From Mycobacteriales bacterium (GTDB taxonomy: Bacteria > Actinomycetota > Actinomycetes > Mycobacteriales > QHCD01), in contig JBEDUI010000239.1 of NCBI GenBank assembly GCA_040414495.1, positions 11,501-75,500 of the forward strand: 64,000 nucleotides of DNA, written 5' to 3'. Of this stretch, positions 11,683 through 41,250 are shown piece by piece. Below the pieces are notes generated by a model. That model did not search any database, was not told the origin of the DNA, and saw nothing but the letters and a program-made list of their open reading frames with translations. The position numbers and the translations under genes are program-made. Position 1 is the first letter of the stretch. Each line of letters begins with the position of its first letter.

Positions 11683-11955
11683 TGCAGCGAACGTGACATC
11701 AGGGCGTTTCGGGAACGTTCCCAGCCAGCCTGGTGTCACGCTCGCTGCACAACCGCAGCTGGCCGCGACGGAGTTCGCCGCCGGTGCAGCGAACGTGACA
11801 TCACGGTCGGACGCGACCTCCGCAAACCACCCTGGCGTCACGCTCGCTGCAAAAAGCGTTAGTCGTCGCCACAGATATTGACCGTCACTGCAGCGAACGT
11901 GACATCAGGGCGTTTTGGGAACGTTCCCAGCCACCCAGGTGTCACGTTCGGTGAA
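11683..11955. repeat. Three tandem 67-nt palindromic units, family A (REP/MITE-like)
   Basis: Units at 11683-11749, 11785-11851 and 11889-11955. Each is bounded by tgcagcgaacgtgaca ... tgtcacg(c/t)tcg(c/g)tg(c/a)a. Units 1 and 3 also hold the perfect inner palindrome gggaacgttccc. Confidence 0.85.
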
Positions 11956-11959
11956 GAAT

Positions 11960-12096
11960 TGGCGCGGTCAGCCAGTCAGCCCCGTCAGCTGTGGGACGAG
12001 CCGGTCAGCCGGTCAGCTGCGAGACGGCGCCGCCAATCGGTCAGCTGCGAATTGGCACAGTCAACCGGTCGACTGCGAGACCGCACCGGAAAACGG
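11960..12096. repeat. Degenerate short tandem repeat (GGTCAGCTGCGA-type)
   Basis: ccggtcagctgcgagacgg / tcggtcagctgcgaattgg / ccggtcgactgcgagaccg / acggtcagctcgcagcggg recur at a period of about 30 nt, running up to the patatin stop codon. Confidence 0.6.
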
Positions 12097-13092
12097 TCAG
12101 CTCGCAGCGGGCGCCGGAAAACGGGCGGCGAGGAATTTGCGCGCGGCGGCCCGGCCGTTTTCGTACAACCGCTGCTGTGTCGCCGCATCAATGTCGAAGT
12201 CGACCGAATCCACGTGCAGGCAGTCGACAAAAATCGTGCGGGCCGTGACGCCTTCGTCGTCGAGATGGTAGGCGTCATGCGCGCCCAGCAGCGTGCGCAG
12301 ACAACCCTGCAGCAGGTCGACGGTGTTGTCGATCTGGTGCGCCGCCTGCCGGGCATCCGGCCGGGCCGACAGCTTGATGCCGAACGTCGGCCAACGCGGC
12401 GGAAGCCCGTCGGTCCGATCGAACGCGTCGACCGGGAAATTGGAAAGCAGTCCACCGTCGACCAACGTCACCGCGCCGCCCCCACCCGGTCCGGTCGCCA
12501 GCTGGGCCGGCCGGTAATAAAACGGAATCGACATCGACGCGCGTACGGATTCCACAATGGACTGTTCATCGGCCTCGAGCCCGTAATAATGGAAATCCCA
12601 CGGCAGCCGGACCAACCGGCCGCGGGACAGGTCGCTGGCCATGACGACGAGCCGGTACCGCTGGGACGGCGGCAACGACGTGCCCTCGTCATCGTCAATC
12701 CGCAGCTGACCCCAGGTCGTAATTCCGACCTTCTCCAATTCGGCCGACAGCCATTCGATCAGGTATTCGCCTTTGTAAATTCCCTCGGACACCATCAATT
12801 CCAGCGCCTTACCCGGCGGGCCGAGTCGGTCGAGCACCGCGCCGTCGCGGAATTTCCGGTAATCCAGCGCCCGCATCACGTCGACGATGCCGGACAGCGG
12901 TCGCCCTGCCGCCTGGTACGTCGCGGCCAGCGCGCCGACGATCGCGCCGGCCGAGGTACCCGCGATCCGCGGAAAATGCAGTCCCTGCTCGGCCAATTCG
13001 ACGATCGCGCCGGCCAGACCGATTCCTTTGACCCCGCCGCCTTCCAGCACCAGGTCGGCACTGGCCGCGGGCACCTGCACGCTGCTGTCCAT
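12097..13092 (-). CDS. Patatin-like phospholipase
   Basis: GGGVKGIGLAG oxyanion motif, GTSAGAIV nucleophile (GxSxG) and DGG Asp motif. The ATG at 13092 (MDSSVQVP) is preferred over the ORF-track start at 13179. Confidence 0.85.
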   Translation of the reverse strand: MDSSVQVPAASADLVLEGGGVKGIGLAGAIVELAEQGLHFPRIAGTSAGAIVGALAATYQAAGRPLSGIVDVMRALDYRKFRDGAVLDRLGPPGKALELMVSEGIYKGEYLIEWLSAELEKVGITTWGQLRIDDDEGTSLPPSQRYRLVVMASDLSRGRLVRLPWDFHYYGLEADEQSIVESVRASMSIPFYYRPAQLATGPGGGGAVTLVDGGLLSNFPVDAFDRTDGLPPRWPTFGIKLSARPDARQAAHQIDNTVDLLQGCLRTLLGAHDAYHLDDEGVTARTIFVDCLHVDSVDFDIDAATQQRLYENGRAAARKFLAARFPAPAAS

Positions 13093-13251
13093 GACGTGTC
13101 CCGTTCGCTCGGTTAGGCGGCCATTGTCCACCAACGAACGTGTCACGAACCACCATTTCCGGTAACCGTATGCGCACAAATGAGTACGCGGCAGCCGCCG
13201 CCCAGCTCAGCGATCATGTGGGGACAAGGCTGCTGCCGGAATGGAGCAATC

Positions 13252-13731
13252 ATGACTGAACCTGCGGAACAGATCGATTACGCCAATCTCCCCGCGCCCG
13301 ACTCGGGCTTTGTGGTCACGATGTTCATCACCGTCCGCAAGGTCGCACGGTCCCGGGATTTCTACTCGCGGGTCCTGGGCGGCACCGTCGTCCTGCCCGA
13401 GAACCCCTGCATCGTCAAGCTGTCCAATACGTGGATCATCATGAATCCCGGCGGGCCACCCACGCCGGACAAGCCCGATATCTCGGTGGTCAATTACGAG
13501 CCCGGCGATACGACCTCGATGTTCCTCAACCTACGGGTCGCCGATATTCAGGCCCGTTACGAGGAGTGGAAGGGCAAAGGCGCGGAATTCCTCACGCCGC
13601 CGATCGACCGGGGGGCCGAGATCCGCTGCTATATGCGGGATCCGGACGGCTATCTCATCGAGGTCGGCCAAGCCACCGGGCTGCTGCAGGGAAAGCTCGC
13701 CGAAAAACGACCCGAGGACCTGCCCGGCTGA
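13252..13731 (+). CDS. Glyoxalase/bleomycin-resistance/dioxygenase (VOC) family protein
   Basis: SRDFYSRVLGGTV ... YMRDPDGYLIEV is a typical VOC fold signature. The ATG at 13252 is preceded by ggagca. Confidence 0.75.
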   Translation: MTEPAEQIDYANLPAPDSGFVVTMFITVRKVARSRDFYSRVLGGTVVLPENPCIVKLSNTWIIMNPGGPPTPDKPDISVVNYEPGDTTSMFLNLRVADIQARYEEWKGKGAEFLTPPIDRGAEIRCYMRDPDGYLIEVGQATGLLQGKLAEKRPEDLPG

Positions 13732-13906
13732 TCCGGCCTGCCCGACTGTCCACAGTGGACTGCCGAGGATGGCCGGGGCGGGCGAGGGTTCAGCCGGTGC
13801 TGGCGGGCGGGCAAGGCCTCAACAGCGCCGGGCGGCGTCAAGAGGTCAGCCGCTGCTGGGCGAGGGTAGATCCGTATGCGGGGGTCGATCGGTACGCGGC
13901 GGGCGA

Positions 13907-14926
13907 TCAGCCGGTACGGGCCAGTACGAAATCGGCCAGCGCGGCCAACCCAGCGCGGGCCGGTACGTCCGGCAGATCCGCCAGCGCTTCGCGGGCCCGC
14001 GAGGCGTATTCGGATGTCGTGGCACGCGCCTGTTCCATCGCCGGCGAGATACGCAGCAACTGCAATGCCTCGGCGTGCCGGTCATCGTCGGTCAGCGGAC
14101 CGGCCAACAGCTCCCGCAACCGGACCGCATCCGGATCGGTCGCCGTGGACCGCAGTGCGTACAACGCCGGCAACGTGTGGATGCCCTCGCGCAGGTCGGT
14201 GCCCGGCGTCTTCCCGGACTCGGCCGTCTGCGAGGCCACGTCGAGCAGGTCATCGGAAAGCTGGAACGCCGTCCCGACGATTTCCCCGTACCGCTGCACG
14301 TTCGCCACCACATCGGCCGGTGCGCCGGCGAACATCGCGCCGAACCGGGCCGACGTCGCGATCAACGACGCGGTCTTTTCATCCAACACGGTCAGGTAAT
14401 GCGCCACCGGGTCGGCATCACCCACCACGCCGCGCGTTTCCCGAATCTGGCCGGTAACCAACCGGGAGAACGTCCGCGCCTCGATCCGCACCGCCTCCGG
14501 GCCAAGGTCGGAGATGATGTCCGAGGCCCGGGCGAACAGGAAATCGCCGGTCAGAATCGCGACTGTATTGCTCCAGCGCGAATTGGCCGACTCGGCCCCA
14601 CGCCGCACCGGGGCTTCGTCCATCACGTCGTCGTGGTACAGCGTGGCCAGGTGGGTCAGCTCCACGACCACGGCCGCGTCGATGATGCCCGGAGCCTCCG
14701 GGTCGCCGAAGTGCGAGGCCAGCAACACCAACAGCGGCCGGAACCGCTTGCCGCCGGCCGCCACCAGGTGCCGCACCGGCTCGGCGATGAAGTCCACGTC
14801 GGTCGATACGGCGGCGTGCAACGCCTGCTCGACCCGGTCGAGGCCGGTACGTACCGACTCGGCCAGCTTCGGATCGGCGAGCTCGACGAAGCTCTGCATC
14901 GCGTCCGCCCGCGGCAGGCTGGTCAT
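13907..14926 (-). CDS. Polyprenyl diphosphate synthase (long-chain, menaquinone side-chain type)
   Basis: First and second Asp-rich motifs (LYHDDVMDE and FQLSDDLLD); 339 aa; located directly downstream of nuoN. Confidence 0.9.
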   Translation of the reverse strand: MTSLPRADAMQSFVELADPKLAESVRTGLDRVEQALHAAVSTDVDFIAEPVRHLVAAGGKRFRPLLVLLASHFGDPEAPGIIDAAVVVELTHLATLYHDDVMDEAPVRRGAESANSRWSNTVAILTGDFLFARASDIISDLGPEAVRIEARTFSRLVTGQIRETRGVVGDADPVAHYLTVLDEKTASLIATSARFGAMFAGAPADVVANVQRYGEIVGTAFQLSDDLLDVASQTAESGKTPGTDLREGIHTLPALYALRSTATDPDAVRLRELLAGPLTDDDRHAEALQLLRISPAMEQARATTSEYASRAREALADLPDVPARAGLAALADFVLARTG

Positions 14927-14995
14927 CGGCGCGGGCGCAGGCCAAAAGCCGCCGCCAGACGGCCAATGCCAACGATCGAGGTCACGTACACCGGC

Positions 14996-16561
14996 TCACG
15001 ATACGAAGTGGGCGGCCTTGTCGGCCACATCGAGGATCGACTGCGGGAAGATGCCCAGGAAGATCGTGGCCGCCGCGGTGACAGCGAGCGCGACCTGGGT
15101 CGGCCAGCCTGGCACGGCCACGGTCGGGCCGTCCTCCGGCGGGTCCGAGAAGTACATGAGCACCACGATGCGCAGGTAGAAGAACGCCGCGATCGCCGAG
15201 GCGACCAACGCGATCACCACCAGCGTCCCCAGCCCGGCGTCGATGCCGGCCCGGAAGATCACGAACTTGCCGATGAAGCCGGCTGTCAACGGCACACCCG
15301 CGAACGACAGCAGGAAGATCGTGAACACCCCGGCCAGCAGCGGCGACCGCTTGGCCAGACCGGCCCACTGCGACAGGTGCGTCGCCTCGCCGGTCGAGGT
15401 CCGTACCAGCGTCACCACCCCGAACGCACCGAGCGTGGCGAAGGCGTACGTGAGCAGGTAGAACATCGTGCTCGACAGGCCCGCGGGCGACAGCGACATG
15501 ACGCCGACGAGCAGGAAGCCGGCGTGCGCGATCGAGGAGTACGCCAGCAGTCGCTTCACGTCGGTCTGGGTCAGACCGAAGATCGCGCCGACCAGCATCG
15601 AGATGATCGCGACGCCCCACATGATCGGCCGCCAGTCCCACGACGTCGAGCCGAACGCGACGTAGAAGACCCGCAGCATCGCGCCGAACGCGGCGACCTT
15701 GGTGCAGGCGGCCATGAAGCCGGTGATCGGGGTCGGCGCGCCCTGGTAGACGTCCGGGGTCCAGGTGTGGAACGGAGCCACGGAACCCTTGAACAGCAGG
15801 CCGACCACCAGCAGGCCGAAGCCCAACAGCAGCAGCGAGTCGCCCTTGTTGGTCCCGCTGGAGGCGGCGAAAATGCCGTGCAGATTAACCGTGCCCGCGT
15901 ACCCGTACAGCATCGCCAGGCCGTACAGGAAGAACGCCGAGGCGAACGCGCCGAGCAGGAAGTACTTGACCGCGGCTTCCTGCGACAGCAACCGGCGCCG
16001 CCGGGCCAGGCCGGTCAGCAGGTACAGCGGGAGCGAGAGCACTTCCAGCGATACGAACATCAGCAGCAGGTTGTTCGACGCGGGGAAGAGCATCATGCCC
16101 GAGAGGGCGAACGTGATCAGCGGGTACGCCTCGGTCTGCACCCGGGTCGCCGTGGCCTGGGCCCGGTCGCGGCTGCTGCCGACCGCCAACGCGGCCTGAC
16201 TGACCAGGGCACTCCCGCCGGCGTCGACCTTGCGCTCAGCCACCAGCAGGATGCTGATCAGACCCAGCACCGCCAGCGAGCCTTCCAGGAACAGCGTCGG
16301 CCCGTCGATCGCAACCGCGCCCGCCGCGGTGGCGACGTGCTTGTTCCGGATCACGATGACCGTGATCAGCGCGGCCACGCAGCCGGCCATCGCCAGCGGC
16401 GCCTGGATCAGCATGCGAGTGGCCCGAGACGTGAAGGCCTCGATCAGCACCCCCGCGCACGCCACGCCGAGCATGATCAGCATCGGCAGCAGCGCCACGT
16501 AGGCAATGGACGGCGAATGGATCGGCGCCATATCGGCGGCGGTGTTCACCACACCATTCAT
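14996..16561 (-). CDS. nuoN: NADH-quinone oxidoreductase subunit N
   Basis: 521-aa polytopic antiporter-like subunit. ATGA overlap with the nuoM stop; last gene of the nuo order. Confidence 0.95.
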   Translation of the reverse strand: MNGVVNTAADMAPIHSPSIAYVALLPMLIMLGVACAGVLIEAFTSRATRMLIQAPLAMAGCVAALITVIVIRNKHVATAAGAVAIDGPTLFLEGSLAVLGLISILLVAERKVDAGGSALVSQAALAVGSSRDRAQATATRVQTEAYPLITFALSGMMLFPASNNLLLMFVSLEVLSLPLYLLTGLARRRRLLSQEAAVKYFLLGAFASAFFLYGLAMLYGYAGTVNLHGIFAASSGTNKGDSLLLLGFGLLVVGLLFKGSVAPFHTWTPDVYQGAPTPITGFMAACTKVAAFGAMLRVFYVAFGSTSWDWRPIMWGVAIISMLVGAIFGLTQTDVKRLLAYSSIAHAGFLLVGVMSLSPAGLSSTMFYLLTYAFATLGAFGVVTLVRTSTGEATHLSQWAGLAKRSPLLAGVFTIFLLSFAGVPLTAGFIGKFVIFRAGIDAGLGTLVVIALVASAIAAFFYLRIVVLMYFSDPPEDGPTVAVPGWPTQVALAVTAAATIFLGIFPQSILDVADKAAHFVS

Positions 16562-18066
16562 TTGGCCGCGCTCCCCGCGGTCGGAGCCGGATCGGTCTTA
16601 CCCACGTCCTGCATGGTCGCCTTCACGGCTGGGTTAATGACGGACAGAATCGGCTTGGGATACACGCCGAGGAACACGATCAGCACCAGCAGCGGCCCGA
16701 TCGCCCAGGCCTCACGGCCGGACAGGTCACGCCAGCGGCCGACCTTCTCACCCTTCGGGCCGTGGAAGAGCCGCTGGTACATCCACAGCACGTACAGCGC
16801 GGCGAAGATGATGCCGATCGTCGCGAGGATCGCGTACACCTTGTGCACGGTGAACGTGCCCACCAGCGTGAGGAACTCGCTGACGAAGGTCGACAGGCCC
16901 GGCAGCGCCAGCGACGAGAGGCCGGCGAACAGGAACACGCCGGACAGCCACGGCGTCACCGAGGCCACGCCGCCGTAGTCGCCGATCAGCCGGCTCTTGC
17001 CCCGGGTGATCAGGATGCCGACGGCGATGAACAGCATGCCGGTCGACAGGCCGTGGTTGACCATGTAGAGCACGGCCCCGGAGCCACCCTGGGTGGTGAA
17101 CGCGAAGATGCCCAGCCCGATGAACCCGAAGTGCGCGATCGAGGTGTACGCGACCAGTCGCTTCATGTCGCGTTGACCGACCGCGACGATCGCGCCGTAG
17201 ATAATGCCGATGACCGAGAGGATCAGCACCATCGGGGCGAAGTACCGCGACGCATCCGGGAACAGCGGCAGGCAGTAGCGCAGGAACCCGAACGTGCCCA
17301 CCTTGTCCAGCACACCAACCAGGAGCACCGCGCCGCCGATCGGTGCCTCGGCGCCGGCGTCGGGCAGCCAGGTGTGGAAAGGCACCAGCGGGGCCTTGAT
17401 CGCGAAGGCGATGAAGAAGCCGAAGAACAGCAGCTTCTGGTAGCCCGGGTCGACCGTGCCCACCAGCTTCATGAACGCGAACGAGTGCGTCGGCGAGGCG
17501 AAGTACAGCGTGATGACCGCGGCCAGCATGATCAGGCCGCCGAGCAGGCTGTACAGGAAGAACTTCATCGCGGCGTACTGCCGACGCGGGCCGCCGAAGG
17601 AACCGATGAGGAAGTACATCGGGACCAACATGGCCTCGAAGAAGACGTAGAACAGGAAGACGTCGGTGGCCACGAAAACGCCGACCATCATGACTTCCAG
17701 CGCCAACAGCCAGCCGAAGAACGCCCGCGGGCTGCGGTTGCCCGGCGTCTCGTCGTTCCAGGAGGCGATGACCACCACGGGTACGAGTACGGCGATCAGC
17801 AGCACCATCACCAACGCGATGCCGTCGACCCCGACCGCGAAGCTCACGCCGAACGCCCTGATCCAGGTCCACGACAGGTTGCCCTGGAACCGGGCCCCGT
17901 TCGGCTTGAACTGCGCCGCCGCGATGATCGCCACGACCAGGGCCACCAACGACGTACCCAGCGTGATCTGCTTGGCCTGCTCATCCCGGCCTTCCGGCAG
18001 GAGCGCAACGATCAGCGCCCCGACCAGCGGGATCGCGCCGAGCGCAATGAGCCAGTAGCCGCTCAC
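16558..18066 (-). CDS. nuoM: NADH-quinone oxidoreductase subunit M
   Basis: Antiporter-like subunit (PFHTWLPDA). The GTG at 18066 overlaps the nuoL stop (GTGA). The upstream 64 codons of the ORF-track model lie inside nuoL. Confidence 0.93.
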
Positions 18067-20027
18067 CCAAACCTCACAGCCAACAGGGCGGCGACCACCA
18101 CGAACGAGCCGCCGAGCATGGACATGGCGTAGGACCGGACGAATCCGGTCTGCAGCCGGCGCAGCCGCGCCGAACTGCCCCCGAGCAGAGCCCCGATACC
18201 GCCGACGGCGCCATCCACACCGCGGCTGTCGAAGTAGACCGCCGCGCGGGACAGCCACTCACCGGGGTGCGCGAACAGCCCTTCGTTGAGGGCGTCGCCG
18301 TACAGGTTCTTGCGGGCGGCGACCACGATCGGCCCGGCCGCCGGCGGGGTGACCGGCACGTCCTTACGACCGACGGCCAGCCAGGCGAAGACACCACCGA
18401 GCAGCATGGCGACGATCGTCAGGATCGACAGCGTGGTCGAGGAAATCGCCTCGGTGTTCGGCTCGGCGAACCCGACGGCCGGCGTCAGCCAGTGCACCAG
18501 GCGGTCGCCGGTGGCGAACCAGGCACCGGCGCCGATCGCGCCGATGGCCAGCAGGATCATCGGGATCGTCATGACCGGCGGCGACTCGTGCGGGTGCGCG
18601 TCCTGCGCCCAACGCCGCTTGCCGAAGAACGTCATCATCATCAGCCGGGTCATGTAGAACGCGGTCAGCAGGGCACCGATCAGCGCGCAGGTGCCGAGGA
18701 TCGTGCCCGACGTACCGCCCTTGTCGAAGGCAGCCTCGATGATCTTGTCCTTGGTGAAGTAACCGGACAGGCCCGGGAAGCCGATCAGGGCCAGGTAACA
18801 GATGCCGAACGTGATGGCCGTGATCGGCATGACGCGGGCCAGACCGCCGTAGCGGCGCATGTTGACCTCGTCGTTCATCCCGTGCATCACCGAACCGGCG
18901 CCGAGGAACAGCCCGGCCTTGAAGAAACCGTGGGCCAGCAGGTGCATGATGCCCAGCGCGTAACCGGCCGGGCCGAGGCCGACGGCCAGGAACATGTAGC
19001 CGATCTGGCTGACGGTCGAGTACGCCAGCACCTTCTTGATGTCGTCGTACGCGCAACCGCTGATGCAGCCGTAGAGCAGGGTGACCGCGCCGATGATCGT
19101 GACGACGGTCCGGCCGTCGGTGGTGGCGTCGAAGATCGGGTTGGACCGCGCGATCACGTAGACGCCGGCGGTCACCATCGTCGCGGCGTGGATCAGCGCG
19201 GAAACCGGGGTCGGGCCCTCCATGGCGTCGGGCAACCACGCCTGCAGCGGAACCTGACCGGACTTACCGCAGGCGCCGAGCAGCAACAGCAACGCGATCG
19301 CGGTGACCGTGGTGGCCGAGGCGTGGTGGATGCCGGCGAAGACGCCGTCGAACGACGTGGTGCCCAGGGAGGCGAACATCAGCATGATCGCGATCGACAG
19401 GCCGACGTCGCCGACCCGGTTCATGATGAACGCCTTCTTCGCCGCCGTGGCCGCCGCGGGCTTGTAGGTCCAGAACCCGATCAGCAGGTACGAGGCCAGA
19501 CCGACACCCTCCCAGCCGACGTACATGACCAGGAAGTTGTTGCCCAGGACCAGCAGCAGCATCGCCGCGATGAACAGGTTGAAGTACGCGAAGAAGCGGC
19601 GCCGTTCCGGGTCGTGCGCCATGTACCCGAGCGAGTAGATGTGGATCAGCGAGCCGACGCCGGTGATCAGCAGCACGAAACACATCGAGAGCTGGTCCAA
19701 CTGCAGCGCCGCGTCGACGTGGAAGCTGCCGACCGGTATCCAGGTGAACAGGTGGACGTTGTGGCGGCGGTCGTTCGCGCTCTCACCGCGCATGTTGAAG
19801 TACAGCGCGACGGCGTAGATGAAGCAGACCACCGGCACCGCGACACCGAGGTAGTGGCCCCACTTGTCACCGCGCTTGCCGGTGAAGAACAGCACGATCG
19901 CCGAGGCCAGCGGCAGCGCGATGAGCAGCCAGGAGGCCTGCTGCAGACCACCACTGGCCGGATGGGACGCCTCGGTGGCCAACGACGTTATTCCGTTAGC
20001 CAGGGACGCACCGGCGAGGTTGCTCAC
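18063..20027 (-). CDS. nuoL: NADH-quinone oxidoreductase subunit L
   Basis: 654-aa antiporter-like subunit with a C-terminal lateral helix region; position in operon. Confidence 0.95.
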
Positions 20028-20191
20028 GGTTTCCTATCGCCTCTCTGACATCGCGTCCCGACCGAAGCCGGGCCGGCTTGTATCTTGCGCGCCCCGGCGG
20101 AGCCGGAACGGTGGTGCTACGTACGGACATGCGGTCCCGGCGGACCGGGTCGATCAAGCTGACTGGTCGTCCCGGCAGAGCCGGAGAGACT

Positions 20192-32605: not shown

Positions 32606-32658
32606 CACAAAACACAATCGGGACGGGACTACCGCACGTGGCGGACATGTCCCGTCCC
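32606..32658 (-). terminator. Intrinsic terminator downstream of the MT0933-like gene
   Basis: Stem gggacgggac (32620-32629) / gtcccgtccc (32649-32658). On the minus strand it is followed by gattgtgttttgtg. Confidence 0.6.
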
Positions 32659-32711
32659 AATCATGGAAGCGGCCGGTTGTAGCCGCGGGTTTCGCGCTGG
32701 TGGGGCGACCG

Positions 32712-33059
32712 TTACTGGCCGGTCCCGGTGTCCTCGTTCTTGGCCGCGTCGGCCGCGTCCGTGGCCTGGCCCTTGTCCGCCTCGGCTGCGGTGTCCTTGG
32801 CCTCGCTGGTCGCCTGCGACGCGGTGTCGGTGGCGCTGGATGCGCCCCCGGTGCTGGCGTCCTGGCCTTCGCCCGCCGCGCCGTCCGCGGTCGCCTTGGT
32901 GATCACCTGGTCGGCCTTCTCACCGGCCTTGGCGATCTTGTCGTGGTACTTGCCCTTGGTCTTGTCGTCGACGAATTCGCCCGCCTTGTCGACCGCGGAA
33001 CGGATCTGTCCCTCGCGCTCCTTGACCAGTCCCTTGAGTTTGTCCACTAGTCCTGGCAT
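32712..33059 (-). CDS. MT0933/Rv0909-like small protein (antitoxin-like family) with Ala/Asp/Thr-rich tail
   Basis: MPGLVDKLKGLVKEREGQIRSAVDKAGEFVDDKTKGKYHDKIAKAGEKAD resembles the MT0933-like family as I recall it. No partner toxin gene is seen. Confidence 0.65.
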   Translation of the reverse strand: MPGLVDKLKGLVKEREGQIRSAVDKAGEFVDDKTKGKYHDKIAKAGEKADQVITKATADGAAGEGQDASTGGASSATDTASQATSEAKDTAAEADKGQATDAADAAKNEDTGTGQ

Positions 33060-33276
33060 CGTCGTTTTCTCCTCATAAGGCCCCGACCGGCGTGCTCCTT
33101 AACCGACCACGGTACGGCCTCAGGCGGCACAATGCGCTTACCGTGCGCATCCGTATTGCGCAATCCATTCGGCCGGACCCGGTCTGTAACACAGCTAACA
33201 CCACTGTGACGCAGGGTCAAACCATAGGTGACAGATCGGGGTTGCGTACCGGTCAGATGGCCCCTCAATTGGCCCC

Positions 33277-33972
33277 TCAGTTGGCGGGGCGTACGGCCCG
33301 ATGCAGCGCGACGATGCCGCCGGTGAGGTTGCGCCAGGCGACCTCGCCCCAGCCGGCAGCGGCGATCCGGGCGGCCAGCCCTTCCTGATCGGGCCAGGCG
33401 CGGATCGACTCGGCCAGGTACGCGTACGCATCCGGCGAACTGCTCACCGTGCGGGCCAGCGGCGGGATCGCCCGCATCAGGTACTCGACGTACACCGTCC
33501 GGAACGGCCCCCACGTCGGCACGCTGAACTCGGCCACCAGCAACCGGCCACCGGGCCGGGTCACCCGACGGAACTCGCGCAACGCCGCCGGCACATCGAC
33601 CACGTTGCGCAGCCCGAACGAGATCGTGACCGCGTCGAAGCTGGCGTCGGCGAACGGCAGCCGCAGCGCGTCGCCGGCGACCAACGGGACCGAGACCCGC
33701 GACGCGCCCTGGACCAACATGCCGACCGAGAAGTCGCAGCCGATGACCGTGGCGCCGGAACCGGCCAGCGCCTCGGTCGAGGTACCGGTGCCAGCGGCGA
33801 CATCGAGGATGCGTTCGCCCGGGATGGCGTGCAGCGAGTCCCGGACGACGCGCCGCCAGCGGTGGTCCTGACCGAGGGACATGAGGGTGTTCATCACGTC
33901 ATAGCGGCGGGCGACACCGTCGAACATGCGCGCCACCGCAGCCGGGTCCTTGGCCAGCGTTGCTCTGCTCAC
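33277..33972 (-). CDS. menG: Demethylmenaquinone methyltransferase
   Basis: [25 protein letters not shown] and ILDVAAGTG are UbiE/MenG signatures. The GTG at 33972 gives 231 aa; the longer ORF-track N-terminus looks non-coding. Confidence 0.88.
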
Positions 33973-34090
33973 AACAGGTGAGTCTGCCACCGCGCCGGAG
34001 GGACCGGTCCGCGGGCGCAATCGGCCGAAATCCGGGCGCATCAGGTGGTCGGCCGCGCGGGCTCCGAAACGCGGTACGTAGGCTGGCGGG

Positions 34091-35326
34091 GTGACGAGTG
34101 CTCCCGACCTGACGGCGATCACCGTACGCAGCGTCCCCTTGGACGCCCCCGGCTCCCTTCCCAGCCGGCTCCCGAACGGCCCGGTCTTCTCCTGGGTCAG
34201 CGAGGGCGACGGGCTGGTCGGATGGGGAGAGCTCACGCGCTACGAATGGACCGGCGACGACGCCGCGGCCGGCGCGGCGGCGTGGTGGCGAGACTGGTGC
34301 CGGACGGTTCGCGTGCACGACCCGGTCGGCCTGCCCGGCTCCGGCCCGGTCGCCTTCGGCAGCCTGGCGTTCGACCAGCGCACCTCGTCCTCGGCCCTGG
34401 TCGTACCGCGGGTGGTGCTCGGCCGGCGCGGCGGACATTCCTGGTTGACCACGTTCGGGGCCGACGCGCAGCTGCCGCCGGTGGGCACGTTCGCCCCAGC
34501 CCGGCAGGTCAGCTACGCCGATGGCGCGCTGGGCCCGGATCAGTGGGGCGCCGCGGTCGCCGAGGCGGTACGCCGGATCCGCGCCGGCGAGCTGCACAAG
34601 GTCGTGCTGGCCCGCGATCTGGTCGCCACGACATCGCCGGCGGTGGACGTACGGTCGCTGCTGGTGTGGCTGGCCGAGCGGTACCCGTCGTGCTGGACGT
34701 ATTGCGTGGACGGTCTGGTCGGGGCAACGCCAGAGCTGCTGGTCCGCCGCCGCGGCAACCGGGTCGATTCCCGGGTGCTGGCCGGCACGTCGTGGCGCGG
34801 CCTGGAGTCGGACGGCGACGAAGCGGCCGAACGGTGGCTCATGGCCTCGAACAAGGACCTGGGCGAGCACGAGTACGCGGCCGCATCGGCCGCCCGGATC
34901 CTGGCGTCATACTGCTCGGAGCTACACGTCCCGGCGCCCACACTGCTGCGGCTGCCGAACGTGTCGCACCTGGCGACCGAGATCGTCGGCACCACCGACG
35001 GCGAGGTCAGCTCGCTGGAATTGGCCGGCGCACTGCATCCGACCGCGGCGGTCTGCGGCACCCCGACCGACACTGCCCGCGACCTCATCCCGAAGCTGGA
35101 GCAGATGGAACGCGGCCGCTACGCCGGGCCGATCGGCTGGGTCGACGCGGCCGGCGATGGCGACTGGGGGTTGGCGTTGCGCGGTGCGCAGGTCGACGGT
35201 GCCCGGGTACGGATGTTCGCCGGCTGCGGCATCGTCGCCGGCTCCGAGCCAGACCGGGAGCTAGCCGAGGCGCAGGCCAAGTTCGTCGTGATGCGCGACG
35301 CCCTGGAGTCCCGCGACTCGGCCTGA
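34091..35326 (+). CDS. menF: Isochorismate synthase
   Basis: Chorismate-binding C-terminal motifs [42 protein letters not shown]. Confidence 0.9.
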
Positions 35327-35334
35327 GGCCGGCG

Positions 35335-36288
35335 CTACATGTCGTGCTCCCAGCTGCCGCGCGTGTCGACGTCCGCAGCATCCGCCAGCGCTTCCAGCTC
35401 CGCGATCTCTTCGTCGGCAAGCTCGATGCTGTGCGCTTTGACCAACCCGGCGATGTGACTCGCCTTCGTGACCCCGATGATCGGGGTGGTCCCCTTGGCG
35501 ATGGCCCAGGCGGTGGCGACGTCGGCGGCGGACGCGCCTCGGTCCTCGCCGATCGCCCCCATCCGGTCCGTCAGCGCCTGCAGCTGGGGCAGGATCCCGT
35601 TGTAGACGGCCGCCCGGCTGCTGCCCTCTGGCAACGGATGGGCCGGGTGGTAGCGGCCGGTCAGCGCCCCTTGCTCGAGGACCATGTACGAAAAGAACCG
35701 CACGTCGTGCTCGCGGCAGTGATCGAGAATGCCGGCCCGCTCAGAGCTCCGGTACAGCAGGCTGTAGTGGTTCTGGACCGCCTCCACCCGGAAGCCGGCC
35801 GCACCAAGGATCTGATCGGCTAGAGCGATCTCCCTCATGTTGTGGTTCGAGACGCCGACATGCTTGATCCTGCCGCTCTGCAGCAGCGGAATCAGCAGCG
35901 GTGTCCAACGGGCCACGTCGGCCGGGTTGTGGATCCAGTACAGATCCACATAGTCCGTACCCAGTCGGTTCAGGCTCTGCTCCAGCATGTCCGCGACCGG
36001 ATCGCCTCCGCCGCCCGCGATCTGCGGGGTGAACTTCGTCGACAGCTGGTAGTCGCTGCGGGCGTAGCCCTTCAGCGCCTGAGCGAGGACCGTCTCCGAG
36101 CGGCCCATGCCGTACACCATCGCGGTGTCCCACAGCGTCAACCCGTTCGATTGCGCCTTCTCGACGACCTCTCGCAAGCCGGACGCGGTCAGCTGACTAC
36201 CGAAATAGCCGTCGCCCACCTCTCCGCTGTCTCCCCAGGCCCACGTACCCAGCGCCACCGCCGGCGCCGTCAGCGTCGTGCTCGTCAT
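35335..36288 (-). CDS. Aldo/keto reductase
   Basis: LGTWAWG, DTAMVYG, YVDLYWIHNP, GVSNH motifs. The ATG at 36288 is preceded by ggaggtagggg. Confidence 0.88.
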   Translation of the reverse strand: MTSTTLTAPAVALGTWAWGDSGEVGDGYFGSQLTASGLREVVEKAQSNGLTLWDTAMVYGMGRSETVLAQALKGYARSDYQLSTKFTPQIAGGGGDPVADMLEQSLNRLGTDYVDLYWIHNPADVARWTPLLIPLLQSGRIKHVGVSNHNMREIALADQILGAAGFRVEAVQNHYSLLYRSSERAGILDHCREHDVRFFSYMVLEQGALTGRYHPAHPLPEGSSRAAVYNGILPQLQALTDRMGAIGEDRGASAADVATAWAIAKGTTPIIGVTKASHIAGLVKAHSIELADEEIAELEALADAADVDTRGSWEHDM

Positions 36289-36485
36289 GTCCCCTACCTC
36301 CATTGCTTGTTCTTCGGCCGTGGCGCCCTGTGCTGAACGCCCCGACCGCCAGCGCCGTCAGGAAACGCGCCCCCAACAACTCGATCCTCACCGAATCGCG
36401 ATCGCCGCCACCGGAGAAGGTCGCATTTATAGGGCGTACGAGCTCAACCCCCTTCGCAGCGTGACCAGCGGCTACCGTGACTGGC

Positions 36486-36644
36486 ATGGACCAGCAGCCC
36501 GGAAACCGGGGCGAAATCCGGGACTTCCGCGCCAGCCGGCGCTCCGAAATCACCCTGGCGCAGGTCGGGCTGCCGACCAGCACCCGTCGCCGGGTCCCCG
36601 GGCTGCGGCGCGAGGAGGACAAGAGATCCTGCCCAACGGCCTAA
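36486..36644 (+). pseudogene. Truncated remnant of an MmyB-like XRE-family HTH regulator (N-terminal 45 residues or so only)
   Basis: The translation MDQQPGNRGEIRDFRASRRSEITLAQVGLPTSTRRRVPGLRREED matches the conserved start of this family (...RRRVPGLRREEVA...). The reading then diverges and stops after 7 more codons. A family B palindromic element follows at 36691. Confidence 0.5.
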
Positions 36645-36690
36645 CCGTCGGCATCGCTCTCCACGGGACAGGCTTTCTCTGCCCTTCGAC

Positions 36691-36746
36691 CATGATCGTG
36701 AGTGGATTTAGTACCGAAAACGGCGCCAAATCTACTCATGATCATG
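36691..36746. repeat. Palindromic element, family B, copy 1
   Basis: catgatcgtgagtggattt (36691-36709) pairs with aaatctactcatgatcatg (36728-36746), 17 of 19 bp. Related copies lie at 56735-56795 and 57091-57148. Confidence 0.8.
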
Positions 36747-36838
36747 AAAACGGGGCGGCCGCGACGCGGCGCAGAGTCACAGGCGATGCGGGGGGTTTGG
36801 CTTCGTGAAGCGAGGGTTGGGTCTCACGGGAAGCCCAG

Positions 36839-37822
36839 TCAGGGCAGGAGTTCGGCGCAGGCGGCAATCCGGTCCCGCCACCAGACCGCACGGTCCGGCG
36901 GCGCCGCCAACTCGGCCAGCAACGCCGGGTCCGGGTCGGGGCGACGTACCAGGCTGAACCCATCGACCGGCCGCAGCGGATCGTCCGTCACATCCCGGGT
37001 CATCAGGCTCAACGTGCCCAACCCGCAGGCGTGATCCAACTCCGGCAGCGCGGCGGCGAGCGCCAACCCCGCGGCCAACCCGACCGACGTATCCACCGCT
37101 GAGGAGACCACGCACGGCAGCCCGCACGCTTCGGCGACCGCGAGCGCCGCGGCCACCCCACCCAACGGCGCGACCTTGAGCACCGCGATGTCGGCGGCCC
37201 CGGCGACCGCGACCCGCAGCGGGTCCTCGGCCTTGCGGATCGACTCGTCCGCCGCGACCGGTACGTCGACCCGCCGCCGCAACGCGGCCAACTCCGCCAA
37301 GGTGGCGCACGGCTGCTCGACGTACTCCAACCCGTGGGCGGCCCGATCCAACGCGGCGACCGCACTCACCGCCTCCGGGACCGACCACCCACCGTTGGCG
37401 TCGACCCGGATCCGGGCGGACCGCCGCCCGGTCGCGTCCAAGGTGGACCGAACCGCCTCGATCCGGGCTATGTCGTCAGCCAACCGCTGCCCGACCTCGG
37501 CCACCTTGACCTTTACCGTCTGGGCGGCGGATTCGGCGACCAGCTGGCTGGCTTGCTCGGGGTCGCAGGCCGGTACGGTCGCGTTGACCGGAACCTTCGT
37601 CCGGACCGCGGCCGGCCACCGGGCCGTGCACGCCTCCCGCGCGGCAGCCAACCAGAGGGCTGCCTCGGGCGGTTCGTACTCCACGAACGGCGCGAACTCA
37701 CCCCACCCGGCCGGGCCGTGCAGCAGCGCCGCTTCTCGTACCGTGATTCCCCGAAATCGGGTCCGCATCGGAATTGACACCACATGAATGTCTACTGTGG
37801 ACAACCAATGCCCGGTGACCAT
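36839..37822 (-). CDS. menC: o-Succinylbenzoate synthase
   Basis: VVSIPMRTRFRGITVREAALLHGPAGWGEFAPFVEY is a typical actinobacterial MenC N-terminus. The ATG at 37822 is preceded by gagggg. The ORF-track upstream extension is Arg-rich. Confidence 0.9.
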   Translation of the reverse strand: MVTGHWLSTVDIHVVSIPMRTRFRGITVREAALLHGPAGWGEFAPFVEYEPPEAALWLAAAREACTARWPAAVRTKVPVNATVPACDPEQASQLVAESAAQTVKVKVAEVGQRLADDIARIEAVRSTLDATGRRSARIRVDANGGWSVPEAVSAVAALDRAAHGLEYVEQPCATLAELAALRRRVDVPVAADESIRKAEDPLRVAVAGAADIAVLKVAPLGGVAAALAVAEACGLPCVVSSAVDTSVGLAAGLALAAALPELDHACGLGTLSLMTRDVTDDPLRPVDGFSLVRRPDPDPALLAELAAPPDRAVWWRDRIAACAELLP

Positions 37823-37866
37823 GCTCACCCCTCGTACGAATCCCCGCTCGTTACAGTAATGACGAC

Positions 37867-39006
37867 ATGTCGACGCGCCAGTTGCGGGCCATAAACGCGC
37901 CCCTGAATCCGGATTCCATCGCCGCATTTCGACTAGCCGTACAGGCGGCGCTGAACGGCGGCGACGCGCTACTACCGGTGGGCCGGCCGACCGACGCGGC
38001 CGCATTCGAGCCCGACCTCGGCGTACCCGACGACACCGCCGTGGTGATCGGCACCTCCGGCTCCACCGGCGTACCAAAAGGCGTGCTTCTCTCCGCCGCC
38101 GCACTGCGCGCCTCGGCCACCGCGACCATGGACCGACTGGGTGGGCCGGGCCATTGGCTATTGGCATTGCCGGTTCACCACATCGCCGGCCTGCAGGTCG
38201 TGGTCCGCGGCCTCGTCGCGAATACCGAAGTGTCCACTGTGGATTCTTCGAATGGCTTTACGCCGCAGGCATTTCTGGCTGCGGTACGGAAATTGCCGGC
38301 CGGTCGGCGGTACGGCGCACTGGTGCCGACCCAGCTCGGCCGACTCCTGGATGCAGGCGGACCGGCGCTCGATGCGGCGGCCTCGTTCGCAGCCCTGATC
38401 ATCGGTGGCGCGGCCAGTTCGGCGACGCTGTTGACGCGGGCGCGCGCGGCCGGGCTGAACCCGATCACGACGTACGGGATGTCCGAGACCTGCGGCGGAT
38501 GTGTGTACGACGGCCGCCCGCTGGCCGGTGTCCGGGTCGATGTCGGCCCGGACGGGGCGGTCCGGCTCGGCGGTCCGACCTTGGCGAACGGTTATCTACG
38601 CAGGCCCGACCTGAGTGCGGCGGCCTTCGCCGACGGCTGGTTCCACACCCGCGATGTCGGGCGGTGGCTGCCAGACGGGCAATTGGAGGTGCTGGGCCGC
38701 TCGGATGACGTGGTGAACAGCGGTGGCGAGAAGATCCCGCCGATCCTGGTCGAACGCGCGCTGCTGGCCGACCCCAAAGTGCTCGCCGCGTGCGTACTCG
38801 GCATCCCGGATCCGGAATGGGGTCAAGTGGTTGCGGCCGCGGTGGTCAGCCGGGAAAACGTCGACCTGGATGGGTTACGAGCGACGGTCCGAGAAGCGGC
38901 CGGGCGGCACGCGGTACCCAAACGACTGATCGTGCTGGACGCGCTGCCGATGTTGGAGTCCGGAAAGGTGGATCGGACCGCGGTCCGCAAACTGTTGACG
39001 CCTTAG
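37867..39006 (+). CDS. menE: o-Succinylbenzoate-CoA ligase
   Basis: AMP-binding motifs IGTSGSTGVPKGV, YGMSETCGG, SGGEKIPP. Divergent from menC with a 44-nt spacer. Confidence 0.9.
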   Translation: MSTRQLRAINAPLNPDSIAAFRLAVQAALNGGDALLPVGRPTDAAAFEPDLGVPDDTAVVIGTSGSTGVPKGVLLSAAALRASATATMDRLGGPGHWLLALPVHHIAGLQVVVRGLVANTEVSTVDSSNGFTPQAFLAAVRKLPAGRRYGALVPTQLGRLLDAGGPALDAAASFAALIIGGAASSATLLTRARAAGLNPITTYGMSETCGGCVYDGRPLAGVRVDVGPDGAVRLGGPTLANGYLRRPDLSAAAFADGWFHTRDVGRWLPDGQLEVLGRSDDVVNSGGEKIPPILVERALLADPKVLAACVLGIPDPEWGQVVAAAVVSRENVDLDGLRATVREAAGRHAVPKRLIVLDALPMLESGKVDRTAVRKLLTP

Positions 39007-39263
39007 CGCTGCTCGTCAGAATCGTCGCCGCGCAACGCCGCCCGCAAATCGCGGCGGCTGGCGCGCTTGCGATCCAGCCGGCGTTCGATGTCACCAGCCA
39101 GCGACTGCCGCGGCCGCTTCAGCAGCAGCACCGAGACGGGCACGCTCAGCAGGAGCGCCGCCAGCAGTAGATAAAACGATCGCAGCCCGACCAGATAGAG
39201 CAGGCCGGCGAGCACGGCAAAGATGGCCAACCGGCCGATCAGATAGACAGACAAGGACCGCAC
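39003..39263 (-). CDS. Small two-TM membrane protein (DUF4229-like)
   Basis: 86 aa. Two hydrophobic helices (LIGRLAIFAVLAGLLYLVGL, FYLLLAALLLSVPVSVLLL) followed by a basic tail. Its stop overlaps the menE stop region. Confidence 0.7.
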   Translation of the reverse strand: MRSLSVYLIGRLAIFAVLAGLLYLVGLRSFYLLLAALLLSVPVSVLLLKRPRQSLAGDIERRLDRKRASRRDLRAALRGDDSDEQR

Positions 39264-39636
39264 AGCGCCTCACCAGTCCGGGATAGGAACGCGCTCAACG
39301 GTACGTCACGGGTCGACCGGCCGACGACACCGCATCGCCTATGATCGGCCGTAATCTGCCCAGACAGCGCCACATCAGCGGTACTCTGCTGCTGTCTGCC
39401 GAAACCGGCGCAGCGCTCTCAACGCCGCTGCCCTTCCGGGCATGATCATGGCCCGAAAGGCTGCCCTCTCGCCCACTGACAGTGCGTTATCGTCGCCCTA
39501 CTTTGGGTGGGTGCGGGGACAAGAGGCGCCACTGGCGCCGCCGATACGCGGAGTACGGCGTTACCTGTCTGTCGGTCATCGGGCACACTGGGCCTCGATG
39601 TGGCCTAAAGCCGAGCCGACAGCGGGAGGTGACGGC

Positions 39637-40242
39637 GTGCACGGGCCCGACTCGGATGCACCCGGTGAGCTCGTACGTCGTGCTGCCGCCGGTGATCAAC
39701 GAGCCTGGGACCAGCTCGTCGCCCGGTACAACGACTTGTTGTGGTCGGTCGCGCGTGGATATCGGCTGAGCACCGCCGACGCCGCCGACGCGATCCAGAC
39801 CAGCTGGCTACGGCTGCTGGAGAACCTCGACCGCATCAGCGACCCGGACCGGGTCGCCGCCTGGCTGGCTACAACAACCCGCCGCGAATGCCTCAAGGTC
39901 CTGCAGCGCGGCAGCCGGGAGCGTCCGCATCCGGCCGGGCACGCCACCTTGGACGGCATCGACGGCAGCGGACCGGTCGACGACCGGCTGCTGTTGGCCG
40001 AGCGCGACGCCGAGTTGTGGGAAGCGTTCACCGGCATGTCGGACCGCTGCCAGTGCCTGCTGCGGGTGCTGATGACATCGCCGCCGCCGTCGTACGAGGC
40101 CGTCGCCGCCGCGTTGGAGATGCCGATCGGCAGCATCGGGCCGACCCGGGCGCGATGCCTGGCCCGGTTGCGGACGTTGCTGGAGAAGCAGGGCGGGCTG
40201 TTCGACACCGAACCGCTCCGGCAGCGGGAGGGCCGCTCATGA
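39637..40242 (+). CDS. ECF-type sigma-70 family RNA polymerase sigma factor
   Basis: Region 2 (DQLVARYNDLLWSVARGYRL...DAIQTSWLRLL) and region 4 (CQCLLRVL...SYEAVAAALEMPIGSIGPTRARCLARLR). The GTG at 39637 is preceded by gggagg. Alternative in-frame starts lie upstream (39599). Confidence 0.85.
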   Translation: MHGPDSDAPGELVRRAAAGDQRAWDQLVARYNDLLWSVARGYRLSTADAADAIQTSWLRLLENLDRISDPDRVAAWLATTTRRECLKVLQRGSRERPHPAGHATLDGIDGSGPVDDRLLLAERDAELWEAFTGMSDRCQCLLRVLMTSPPPSYEAVAAALEMPIGSIGPTRARCLARLRTLLEKQGGLFDTEPLRQREGRS

Positions 40243-40700
40243 CCGACATGTTTGGTACCGACGACGAGTTCTTGGCCCGGCTGGGAACGGTGGCCGCCGT
40301 GGCTGACCCGATGCCCGAGAGCCTGACCAGCGCCGCCCAGGCCCTGTTCGGGTTGCGGCAGCTGGACGCCGAACTGGCCGAACTCGTATTGGACTCGGCC
40401 GACCTGCCGCAGACCCGCGAGCTGGCCGTACGGGGTGACGAGGAGCGGATGCTCTCGTTCGAAACCGGCCGGGCCGGCGTAGAGATGCAGATCAGCGAAC
40501 GCTCCGATCGTCGCGACATCGTCTGTCACGTCACCGGAGTACCGCTGGACGCAGCGATCCTCGAAACGCCCAAGGGTCAGCAACCGCTGCGGGTCGACGA
40601 CGACGTGCTGATTGCCCGCGACCTATCGGCGGGGCCGCTGCGGCTGCGGCTCACCACCACTGGCGGGGACAAGATCGTCACCAGCTGGGTCCGTATCTAA
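40239..40700 (+). CDS. Hypothetical soluble protein translationally coupled to the ECF sigma gene
   Basis: ATGA start/stop overlap with the sigma gene and strong G+C third-position bias. 153 aa with no TM segment and no HxxxCxxC zinc anti-sigma motif visible. Confidence 0.75.
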   Translation: MTDMFGTDDEFLARLGTVAAVADPMPESLTSAAQALFGLRQLDAELAELVLDSADLPQTRELAVRGDEERMLSFETGRAGVEMQISERSDRRDIVCHVTGVPLDAAILETPKGQQPLRVDDDVLIARDLSAGPLRLRLTTTGGDKIVTSWVRI

Positions 40701-40714
40701 CCCGCGGCTTCCGC

Positions 40715-40890
40715 AGGCGCGAACCTCAGGCAATCCGCGTAACGAACCTCGGGCAGGCCCGTACCTAACGAACCTCGGGCAACCTCCGGGTACGCAACAC
40801 ACCTCGGGCAACCTCCCGCCGCGCGACGAACCTCGGGCAACCCCCGTACCTAACGGACCTCGGGCAACGTCCCGCCGCGCGACGAACCAG
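40715..40890. repeat. Degenerate tandem repeat of about 27 nt (GAACCTCGGGCAAC core, 6 copies)
   Basis: Cores at about 40721, 40744, 40771, 40798, 40828 and 40855. The intervening segments are also mutually similar (cccgtacctaac x2, ctcccgccgcgcgac x2). Confidence 0.75.
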
Positions 40891-40892
40891 CG

Positions 40893-41013
40893 CCAGATCC
40901 CCAACTGCGGCGAGCGTGACACCAGGGTCGCCGAAAGCATGATCAACCCGCCCTGACGTCACGCTCGCTGCACCGCGGCCGGACCGACCCGCCCTGACGT
41001 CACGCTCGGTGCA
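40893..41013. repeat. Direct repeat of about 121 nt, copy 1; contains one 67-nt family A palindromic unit (40906-40972) plus an extra right arm
   Basis: tgcggcgagcgtgacaccagggtcg ... cgccctgacgtcacgctcgctgca. Nearly identical to 41130-41250. Confidence 0.85.
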
Positions 41014-41129
41014 GCGTGTGCGCCAATGTAGGTGCCGGCGCAGACAGCCGCCACGCAAACCCAGGCAGACTGAGCCACGCAAACGCGCCAATTCCCAACC
41101 GCTCTTCGAGCACGAGCTCTGCGAACCGG

Positions 41130-41250
41130 CCAGATCCCCAACTGCGGCGAGCGTGACACCAGGGTCGCCGAAAGCATGATCAACCCGCCCTGACGTCACG
41201 CTCGCTGCACCGCGGCCGGACCGACCCGCCCTGACGTCACGCTCGGTGCA
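41130..41250. repeat. Direct repeat of about 121 nt, copy 2 (family A unit plus extra arm)
   Basis: Same sequence as 40893-41013, read base by base: cagatccccaactgcggcgagcgtgacaccagggtcgccgaaagcatgatcaacccgccctgacgtcacgctcgctgcaccgcggccggaccgacccgccctgacgtcacgctcggtgca. Confidence 0.85.

Follow-up and report, generated by a model that had tools for sequence, protein, structure and literature searches.

A lineage-specific family of modular palindromic repeats with replication-linked polarity in an uncultured actinomycete

The window analysed here is a stretch of 64,000 nucleotides from a Mycobacteriales bacterium (assembly GCA_040414495.1, contig JBEDUI010000239.1, positions 11,501 to 75,500 of the forward strand), which carries palindromic units of 67 nt, here called Family A, at two intergenic loci. 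These units belong to a genome-wide, lineage-specific expansion of a repeat, and their polarity follows the replication strand and not the direction of the adjacent gene, replication direction being taken from nucleotide skew. In our judgement Family A is probably a non-autonomous, non-coding, strand-specific intergenic repeat of the same kind as the repetitive extragenic palindromes (REPs) and the mycobacterial TRITs ('Tuberculosis Rho-independent terminators'), which passes through a hairpin intermediate at the replication fork and grows locally in the manner of a minisatellite. By the defining tests it is not a REP system with a REP-associated tyrosine transposase (RAYT), by the available tests it is not a miniature inverted-repeat transposable element (MITE), and it is not a homologue of the mycobacterial interspersed repetitive units (MIRUs).

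Genome-wide distribution of Family A

The source assembly (G000) comprises 6.85 Mb in 296 contigs with 65.9% G+C and is 96% complete. Genes were called with a codon-model caller written for this analysis, which gave 5841 genes covering 84.7% of the assembly. The NuoL protein shares at most about 65% identity with proteins from Pseudonocardiaceae, Acidothermaceae, Geodermatophilaceae and Rhodococcus, and the genus contains only one further species genome (G001). The host is an uncultured actinomycete in an order which also contains Mycobacterium.

The original prediction likened the units to families of REP or MITE type. The genome-wide search for the arm motif bears this out and shows a dispersed, intergenic family: the motif is not local to the two loci of the window. 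With up to two mismatches the box is found in 412 copies on 89 of the 296 contigs (shuffled boxes, 1-12 copies), and with up to three mismatches in 608 copies, which form 118 arrays. A profile search recovered 233 distinct elements, all but one of which (232) lie outside called genes; the repeats are therefore intergenic and not translated. Because 49 of the 592 contig ends (8%) break within an array, the true copy number lies above this count. In practical terms the family breaks the assembly at these ends, and its arrays could be of use as markers of the variable number tandem repeat (VNTR) type.

The 233 elements are spread over 99 spacers, whose median length of 622 nt compares with 63 nt for the spacers of the whole genome. 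Among the 56 host spacers which lie away from contig edges 26 separate convergent genes (genome-wide 17.5%), 22 lie between tandem genes and 8 between divergent ones. Arrays are faced by gene 3' ends 90 times and by gene 5' ends 43 times, and the distance from the stop codon to the array has a median of 125 nt and a 10th percentile of 14 nt. The genes between nearby arrays are ordinary ones and encode a metallo-beta-lactamase-fold protein, a 6-phosphogluconate dehydrogenase, a kinase-like protein, regulators and an ABC transporter.

Modular architecture of the arrays

The basic module is 52 nt long and consists of a 15-nt box, TGCAGCGAGCGTGAC, followed by about 37 nt which start with GTGAGGGTGG and end with CCCTnAT (module consensus TGCAGCGAgCGTGAC.tgAGGGt.G....gCcct.a.). 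Among neighbouring boxes in direct orientation (340 pairs) a distance of 51-52 nt prevails by far, and smaller groups of pairs are spaced by 41 or 61-62 nt; 42 divergent pairs lie at variable distances. The 108 convergent pairs at 51-52 nt are the 66/67-nt units. A typical array is made up of two opposed tandem runs (>>>>><<<<), as on contig C61, where the spacing reads >52>52>52>52>52>51>52>50<52<52<52<. The 66/67-nt palindrome, consisting of box, interior and inverted box, is the meeting point of two runs of opposite orientation. The palindrome which had been taken as the unit of the family is thus real, but it is only the point at which opposed runs of 52-nt modules converge. The length of exactly 67 nt given for every unit likewise holds inside the window but not genome-wide, where both 66 nt (n=60) and 67 nt (n=35) occur. 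The 118 arrays comprise 16 solitary units, 58 larger arrays with at least one convergence, 39 with direct or other arrangements only, of which 22 are cut by a contig end, and 5 single boxes.

Modules of the same array resemble each other more than modules of different arrays do, with identities of 0.87 versus 0.81 for the box and 0.65 versus 0.42 for the remaining part. This agrees with the earlier observation that the arms are conserved and the loops variable. Each box is followed by the motif GTGAGGG, and the complement CCCTCAT stands in front of the next box, so that short direct repeats bracket each 52-nt step. Slippage or unequal exchange between these repeats is the probable way in which arrays grow. 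Growth is not significantly asymmetric, as 33 extra modules lie 5' of the centre and 22 lie 3' of it. A CRISPR array was also considered and rejected, because the 37-nt parts of one array resemble each other (0.65) and have conserved ends and because the box changes its orientation inside arrays; no search for cas genes was made.

Structure of the palindrome

The consensus of the oriented unit is T-TGCAGCGAGCGTGAC-GTGAGGGTGGTTTT-(9 nt)-AAACnGCnCTGGT-GTCACGTTCGCTGCA. Pairing is formed in 93.6% of the cells in the boxes, in 71% in the interior and in 51% at the seven flanking positions. Folded as RNA, the units of the window reach predicted energies of -35 to -44 kcal/mol with z-scores of -5.3 to -7.3, and the consensus folds at -42.4 kcal/mol on the top strand (defined below) and at -23.7 kcal/mol on the bottom strand. 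The unit consensus has neither a U-tract after the hairpin nor a GTAG-like tetranucleotide at its 5' foot.

In 77 oriented units pairs are formed in 76.7% of the cases, compared to 77.3% after shuffling of the columns, and no measure of covariation exceeded the shuffles; the covariation term of RNAalifold is only -0.46 kcal/mol. Because pairing is no better than in the shuffles, we regard the palindrome as inherited from the family consensus, with selection for pairing in individual copies being undetectable. No Rfam family reached its gathering score in the window. The low-threshold matches, to plant miRNA hairpin models and to Ms_IGR-8 (16 bits), are generic matches to hairpins.

Polarity and the replication strand

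The imperfect positions of most units are G·U (G·T) on one strand, the top strand, and A·C on the other. In addition, the G·U-rich strand is in 46 of 49 units also the one with a G/G mismatch at unit position 18 (C/C on the opposite strand). Since recurrent C-to-T change cannot give a mismatch of the transversion type, the polarity is a property of the family and not an imprint of mutation after insertion.

The polarity is associated with the local GC skew, taken over ±15 kb (odds ratio 15.7, p = 3e-8). When the arrays are masked, polarity and skew agree in 66 of 84 units and disagree in 18, and counted by array the numbers are 46 versus 14; the top strand is thus the locally G-rich strand, which is the leading-strand sequence, in about 78% of the units. 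For the skew at third codon positions (GC3 skew) the values of plus- and minus-strand genes were averaged, which removes the contribution of the coding strand and leaves the replication component. With this component the polarity agrees in 53 of 75 units (p = 4e-4) and in 38 of 53 arrays (p = 0.002). Across 130 contigs skew correlates with gene-strand bias (rho = 0.48), which is what one would predict for a G-rich leading strand. The window itself is concordant: its plus strand has a negative skew, and in the three units whose polarity is clear (starting at 11785, 40906 and 41143) the top strand is the minus strand.

Orientation at the level of RNA was considered as the source of the polarity and rejected, as the top strand in tandem spacers runs with the genes 10 times and against them 11 times. 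Where the skew and the gene reading into the array are in conflict, the polarity follows the skew 11 times and the gene 4 times. The polarity of the units therefore follows the replication strand, with replication direction inferred from skew, and not the direction of the adjacent gene.

These data bear on the explanation that the repeats are not mobile DNA at all but selected functional hairpins at RNA 3' ends, with a role as non-canonical terminators, barriers to decay or cleavage sites for RNase III in the way discussed for TRITs. The very stable predicted hairpins (-35 to -44 kcal/mol, z-scores of -5 to -9), the enrichment of arrays in convergent spacers and the excess of gene 3' ends facing them would all fit, and for the TRITs of M. 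tuberculosis paired 3' ends suggest cleavage by RNase III (PMC13714241). We nevertheless hold this explanation to be unlikely, since covariation is lacking, the polarity tracks skew and not the adjacent gene, and no U-tract follows the hairpin. Moreover, arrays of up to 16 boxes and the 8 divergent host spacers fit a function at 3' ends poorly, and G001 from the same genus is without the unit at an orthologous site, as described in the next section.

Occurrence in related genomes

The exact pattern of the full unit gave no match in the public genome collection and none in 40 relatives, and a literature search with sequence strings of the family returned nothing relevant. In eight genomes of the same family (G001-G008), including that of the same genus, the box occurs at background level only. 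The spacer between panE and the patatin gene, which measures 525 nt in the source genome in this comparison (518 nt in Table 1), has a length of about 213 nt in G001 and holds no unit. This G001 spacer (L115, C68 ~100-200) does contain TGCAGAAAGGGTCCGTGACAC and GGAGGGTGGGTT, which may be decayed remnants of box and flank or may be due to chance.

A covariance model (R1) was built from the unit and searched in 300 genomes of the order. In G001 it found one weak match elsewhere in the genome (35.9 bits). Better matches were obtained in another family of the order (f3), with up to 66 bits (E = 5e-13) in G060 and further matches in G010, G044 and G087; these genomes carry a sister family of the repeat. 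The units of G060, about 20 in number, have the form TGCCACGAGCGTGAC...GTCACGCTCGTGGCA and share unit length and interior features with those of the source genome. Matches of 30-44 bits with the common core CGAGCGT(G/A/C)AC come from genus g16 (family f13). The palindromes of this genus are 56-58 nt long (GCGAGCAGACGCAGAATCGCACG-N14-CGTGCGATTCTGCGTCTGCTCGC) and reach up to 127 arms per genome, with none in controls; palindromes of the form GCGAGCGTAACGCC... occur in this genus too.

A metagenome contig from JGI (Ga0310811_10157474), which is 90.5% identical to contig C190 of the source assembly, keeps the orthologous unit at 93% identity, so individual units persist across about 10% divergence. 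Taken together, Family A is a lineage-specific expansion which extends over the whole genome. Two observations concern the positions of units in G060. Next to the RNase P RNA gene (RF00010, 299 bits; L086, C29, 1090-1587) there is a unit at 14 nt from the gene end, and two others (L110, C98, 113-178 and 885-950) bracket a segment of about 700 nt with small open reading frames (ORFs).

The distribution of the box is also of importance for the idea that the arrays are binding sites for a host DNA-binding protein, be it nucleoid-associated, gyrase or iteron-like, which would find one box every 52 nt or about five helical turns. Such a role could account for the strict spacing of 51-52 nt, for a box conserved far above the rest of the module between arrays (0.81 versus 0.42) and for the near-identical box in another family of the order. 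On the other hand no candidate protein is known, the same conservation is equally expected of the recognition site of a mobilising enzyme, and the motif is absent from the closest relatives, with which the core proteome is shared. We consider this idea highly improbable.

A proposed mode of spread

The leading-strand sequence is the sequence of the lagging-strand template, which is single-stranded at the replication fork. Insertion sequences of the IS200/IS605 family use the lagging-strand template for both excision and insertion (PMC3333891, PMC5027513). As the top strand of most Family A units has the sequence of this same template, we infer that the units spread, or are retained, through a step which acts on single strands and is coupled to the fork.

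Under the reading that we favour, new copies would be seeded, or retained, via a strand-specific single-stranded hairpin intermediate at the fork. This step would be like that of IS200/IS605 and like the one proposed for REPs and bacterial interspersed mosaic elements (BIMEs), and the protein responsible would not be a Y1 transposase found in the source genome. A locus once seeded would then grow outward by slippage or unequal exchange between the GTGAGGG and CCCTCAT motifs flanking each box. Growth of that kind would produce the >>>><<<< pattern as well as the greater likeness of modules within an array. Transcribed units would form the very stable predicted hairpins, mostly downstream of genes, and these probably shape or protect mRNA 3' ends, either as a side effect or in an acquired role, as has been proposed for TRIT and REP.

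Several points speak against this reading. No mobilising enzyme was found: the source genome gave no match to Y1_Tnp (PF01797; RAYT and IS200) or to the TnpB zinc-ribbon domain, while the controls responded, and there was no match to Y2_Tnp either, for which the control was silent too. Insertion borders are lacking as evidence for transposition, because the orthologous spacer of G001 is too diverged to align and no pair of empty and filled sites with exact borders was recovered. The null result for covariation given above belongs here as well. Furthermore, replication direction was taken from skew alone on draft contigs, so that its meaning depends on the correlation between skew and gene strand, and the cases which separate an effect of replication from one of transcription are few (11 versus 4).

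Search for a mobilising transposase

The original prediction assumed a dedicated enzyme of the RAYT type. A classical REP system of this sort, with the gene for the RAYT (a Y1 transposase of the HUH class) missing from the metagenome-assembled genome, would explain palindromic, intergenic, clustered elements in high copy number, and a strand polarity tied to replication is what the single-strand HUH mechanism predicts (PMC3333891). It could also be argued that a gene flanked by repeats was lost from an assembly which is 96% complete and has 8% of its contig ends in arrays. However, Y1_Tnp is missing not only from the source genome but also from all four carriers of the sister repeat family (G060, G010, G044 and G087). 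It is present in G074, G103 and G296, and G074, a member of family f3 with six matches, has the Family A box only near background. In addition, the units exceed REPs in length two- to threefold and show none of their conserved GTAG-type 5' heads. These results give the RAYT model no support, with the reservation that the source assembly is incomplete, and we regard it as quite unlikely. Two of the three exact matches to the box pattern in G074 lie inside Y1_Tnp ORFs, which we take as a coincidence of the coding sequence.

A second possibility is a MITE derived from an insertion sequence with a DDE-type transposase, whose terminal inverted repeats would be the 15-nt boxes and which would be moved in trans. 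Units of 66-67 nt with nearly perfect inverted ends (93.6% of the cells paired), a variable interior and an expansion restricted to one lineage are in line with it. Several features are not: no direct target-site duplication was found, as the flanks extend the palindrome (CCCTyAT ... ATrAGGG) and do not repeat directly, and most boxes (340 neighbour pairs) stand in direct 52-nt tandem and not in inverted pairs. A polarity linked to replication is not expected of a symmetric cut-and-paste element either. Finally, no parent insertion sequence was detected, since no pair of boxes in the assembly encloses a transposase gene and none lies between neighbouring arrays or boxes within 6 kb. An origin as a MITE is accordingly very unlikely.

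One other ORF deserves mention. On contig C61 (709-1581, outside the window) a reading frame of 291 aa with a DUF559 / REase_MTES_1575 nuclease-like C-terminus and a lower G+C content (62%) has Family A arrays on both sides. It was not called as a gene by the codon model, and as a candidate for a family-associated gene it was rejected, because its sole paralogue (35% identity) is not near any array.

The two loci in the window

The features of the window are listed in Table 1. The sequence agrees with the five 67-nt units which had been reported (the fifth at 41143-41209) and with the perfect palindrome GGGAACGTTCCC in two of their loops. The box TGCAGCGA(R)CGTGAC is present in 12 copies, which are all confined to the two loci, and a search with TGCAGCGARCGTGACA and up to two mismatches gives 12 matches in the 64 kb compared to 0.13 expected, with none outside of these loci. 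Unit 3 has a degenerate box as its right arm (TTCACCGAACGTGACA, with 2 mismatches). Unit 1 folds at -42 and -43.6 kcal/mol on its two strands, and unit 2 at -43.4 kcal/mol on the minus strand versus -35.5 kcal/mol on the plus strand.

At the second locus direct repeats of 121 nt had been described; their actual length is 130 nt. The two copies are 98% identical and spaced by 237 nt, and each contains one unit followed by one right-hand box 41 nt further on. Degenerate tandem repeats with periods of 28 nt and 28/56 nt do adjoin the loci as had been stated, and they are unrelated to the units. Of the spacer lengths of 0.5-0.6 kb the first is correct, while the second spacer is longer.

Table 1. 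Features of the two Family A loci (positions refer to the 64,000-nt window).
Feature	Position	Strand	Description
Unit 1	11683..11749		67 nt; box > ... box <; loop GGGAACGTTCCC; polarity ambiguous (G·U 2, A·C 2)
Unit 2	11785..11851	minus = top (G·U) strand	67 nt
Unit 3	11889..11955		67 nt; right box degenerate; loop GGGAACGTTCCC
Tandem array, unit and linker	11683..11950		period 104 nt, 2.6 copies
Direct repeat, copy 1	40892..41021	minus	130 nt; unit 40906-40972 (top strand minus) and right-hand box 40998-41013 (41-nt module)
Direct repeat, copy 2	41129..41258	minus	130 nt; unit 41143-41209 and extra box 41235-41250
Unrelated degenerate 28-nt tandem repeat	11970..12102		GGTCAGC-rich; adjoins first locus
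Unrelated degenerate 28/56-nt tandem repeat	40741..40888		ACGAACCTCGGGCAAC; adjoins second locus
Host spacer, first locus	11579..12096		518 nt; bordered on the left by the start of the ketopantoate-reductase-like gene 10583-11578 (minus) and on the right by the stop of the patatin-like gene 12097-13179 (minus)
Host spacer, second locus	40701..41489		about 790 nt; between the convergent genes ORF 40239-40700 (plus) and LuxR-type gene 41490-42119 (minus)

The plus-strand ORF which borders the second spacer has no Pfam match and lies after a sigma-70-type gene. A perfect hairpin of high G+C content (GCGGCGGTGGCC-GGGTCA-GGCCACCGCCGC) stands just past the second array, at 41289-41318; it resembles a terminator but is without a U-tract. 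The gene at 42133-44832, divergent from that for the LuxR-type regulator, codes for a protein of 899 aa which combines TPR repeats with a CHAT domain.

Comparison with known systems

Only in systems with a RAYT are palindromic repeats of high copy number well understood. Family A shares with REPs, BIMEs and REPINs (REP doublets forming hairpins; PMC3333891, PMC3116915, PMC8266576) the intergenic position, the imperfect palindromes in hundreds of copies, the clusters of alternating orientation, local amplification, a proposed single-strand hairpin mechanism and, by prediction, hairpins at mRNA 3' ends. It differs from them in the absence of a Y1 transposase from the source genome and four other carriers, in the missing GTAG head, in the unit length of 66-67 nt and in the direct tandem of 52-nt modules as its majority form. 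Its similarity to the IS200/IS605 family (PMC5027513) is one of behaviour only: one active strand, non-canonical pairs in the hairpins and an orientation tied to the lagging-strand template are found in both, whereas Family A has no transposase, no TnpB and no coding capacity.

In their intergenic tandem arrays with a period of 51-53 nt, Family A and the MIRU/VNTR loci of the same order look alike. The core GATGCAGAGCGAAGCGATGAGGAGG, which we take to be that of the MIRUs, is a real 53-nt tandem repeat in genus g16, and in G103 (L120, C1:2792880-2793260) a MIRU-type array of four 53-nt copies with this core was found. Single copies elsewhere in G103 lie between the stop and start codons of adjacent genes. 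MIRUs differ from Family A in that they form no palindrome and sit between co-directional genes, whose stop and start codons fall within the repeat. Homology was rejected, as an nhmmer profile of the box and its flanks ranks no MIRU locus above decoys from the reversed genome.

The consensus of RF02470 (Ms_IGR-8, a small RNA of M. smegmatis) corresponds to one arm and hairpin of a palindrome of similar type (GCGAGUGUGAAGCUGCUGCG...), and it matches the palindromes of genus g16 at 24-29 bits. The element of the window does not belong to this family, given its score of 16 bits versus a gathering score of 44.

The closest parallel is TRIT, a palindrome at gene ends with 147 copies in M. tuberculosis (Gardner et al. 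2011, PMC3152330). It has been without an agreed function for 15 years: it was proposed to be a terminator but overlaps little with mapped termination sites (bioRxiv 10.1101/2022.06.01.494293), and it was later proposed as a substrate of RNase III on the basis of paired 3' ends (PMC13714241). We provisionally take genus g16 as Mycobacterium and its palindromes as TRIT, judged from copy number, size and genus and not from an alignment by the original authors. Like TRIT, which is a palindrome of about 50-60 nt with a strongly conserved stem sequence, Family A is a high-copy conserved palindromic stem-loop which lies near gene ends, can be read on both strands and lacks a U-tract, and it comes from the same order. 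On the same provisional assignment the two also share the stem start CGAGC..., and some g16 palindromes match the R1 model at 30-44 bits. The differences are that the stem of Family A holds a different 15-nt box, that its unit is longer (66-67 nt) and arranged in arrays of 52-nt modules, that it lies at a median of 125 nt past the stop codon while TRIT overlaps the stop codon (about -8, PMC3152330), and that TRIT has been reported to be confined to Mycobacterium.

It is tempting to speculate that Family A, the sister repeat family of G060-like genomes and the palindromes of TRIT type form one superfamily of strand-specific mobile hairpins, spread at the fork by a so far unrecognised enzyme other than a Y1 transposase or RAYT, possibly a conserved host protein. 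We would put this forward only tentatively, as unlikely. If it were true, TRITs would be selfish or domesticated single-strand mobile DNA and not terminators, and their polarity would flip at the origin and the terminus of closed mycobacterial genomes. Should the polarity hold in closed Mycobacterium genomes, this would point towards a replication-coupled single-strand origin for such repeats. With at least 600 boxes the source genome represents an extreme expansion of a TRIT-related element, whose architecture, polarity and link to replication make the question testable. Compared to the known kinds of repeats, Family A is new in three respects, namely its arrays of 52-nt modules, an intrinsic polarity linked to the replication strand, and the absence of any known single-strand transposase.

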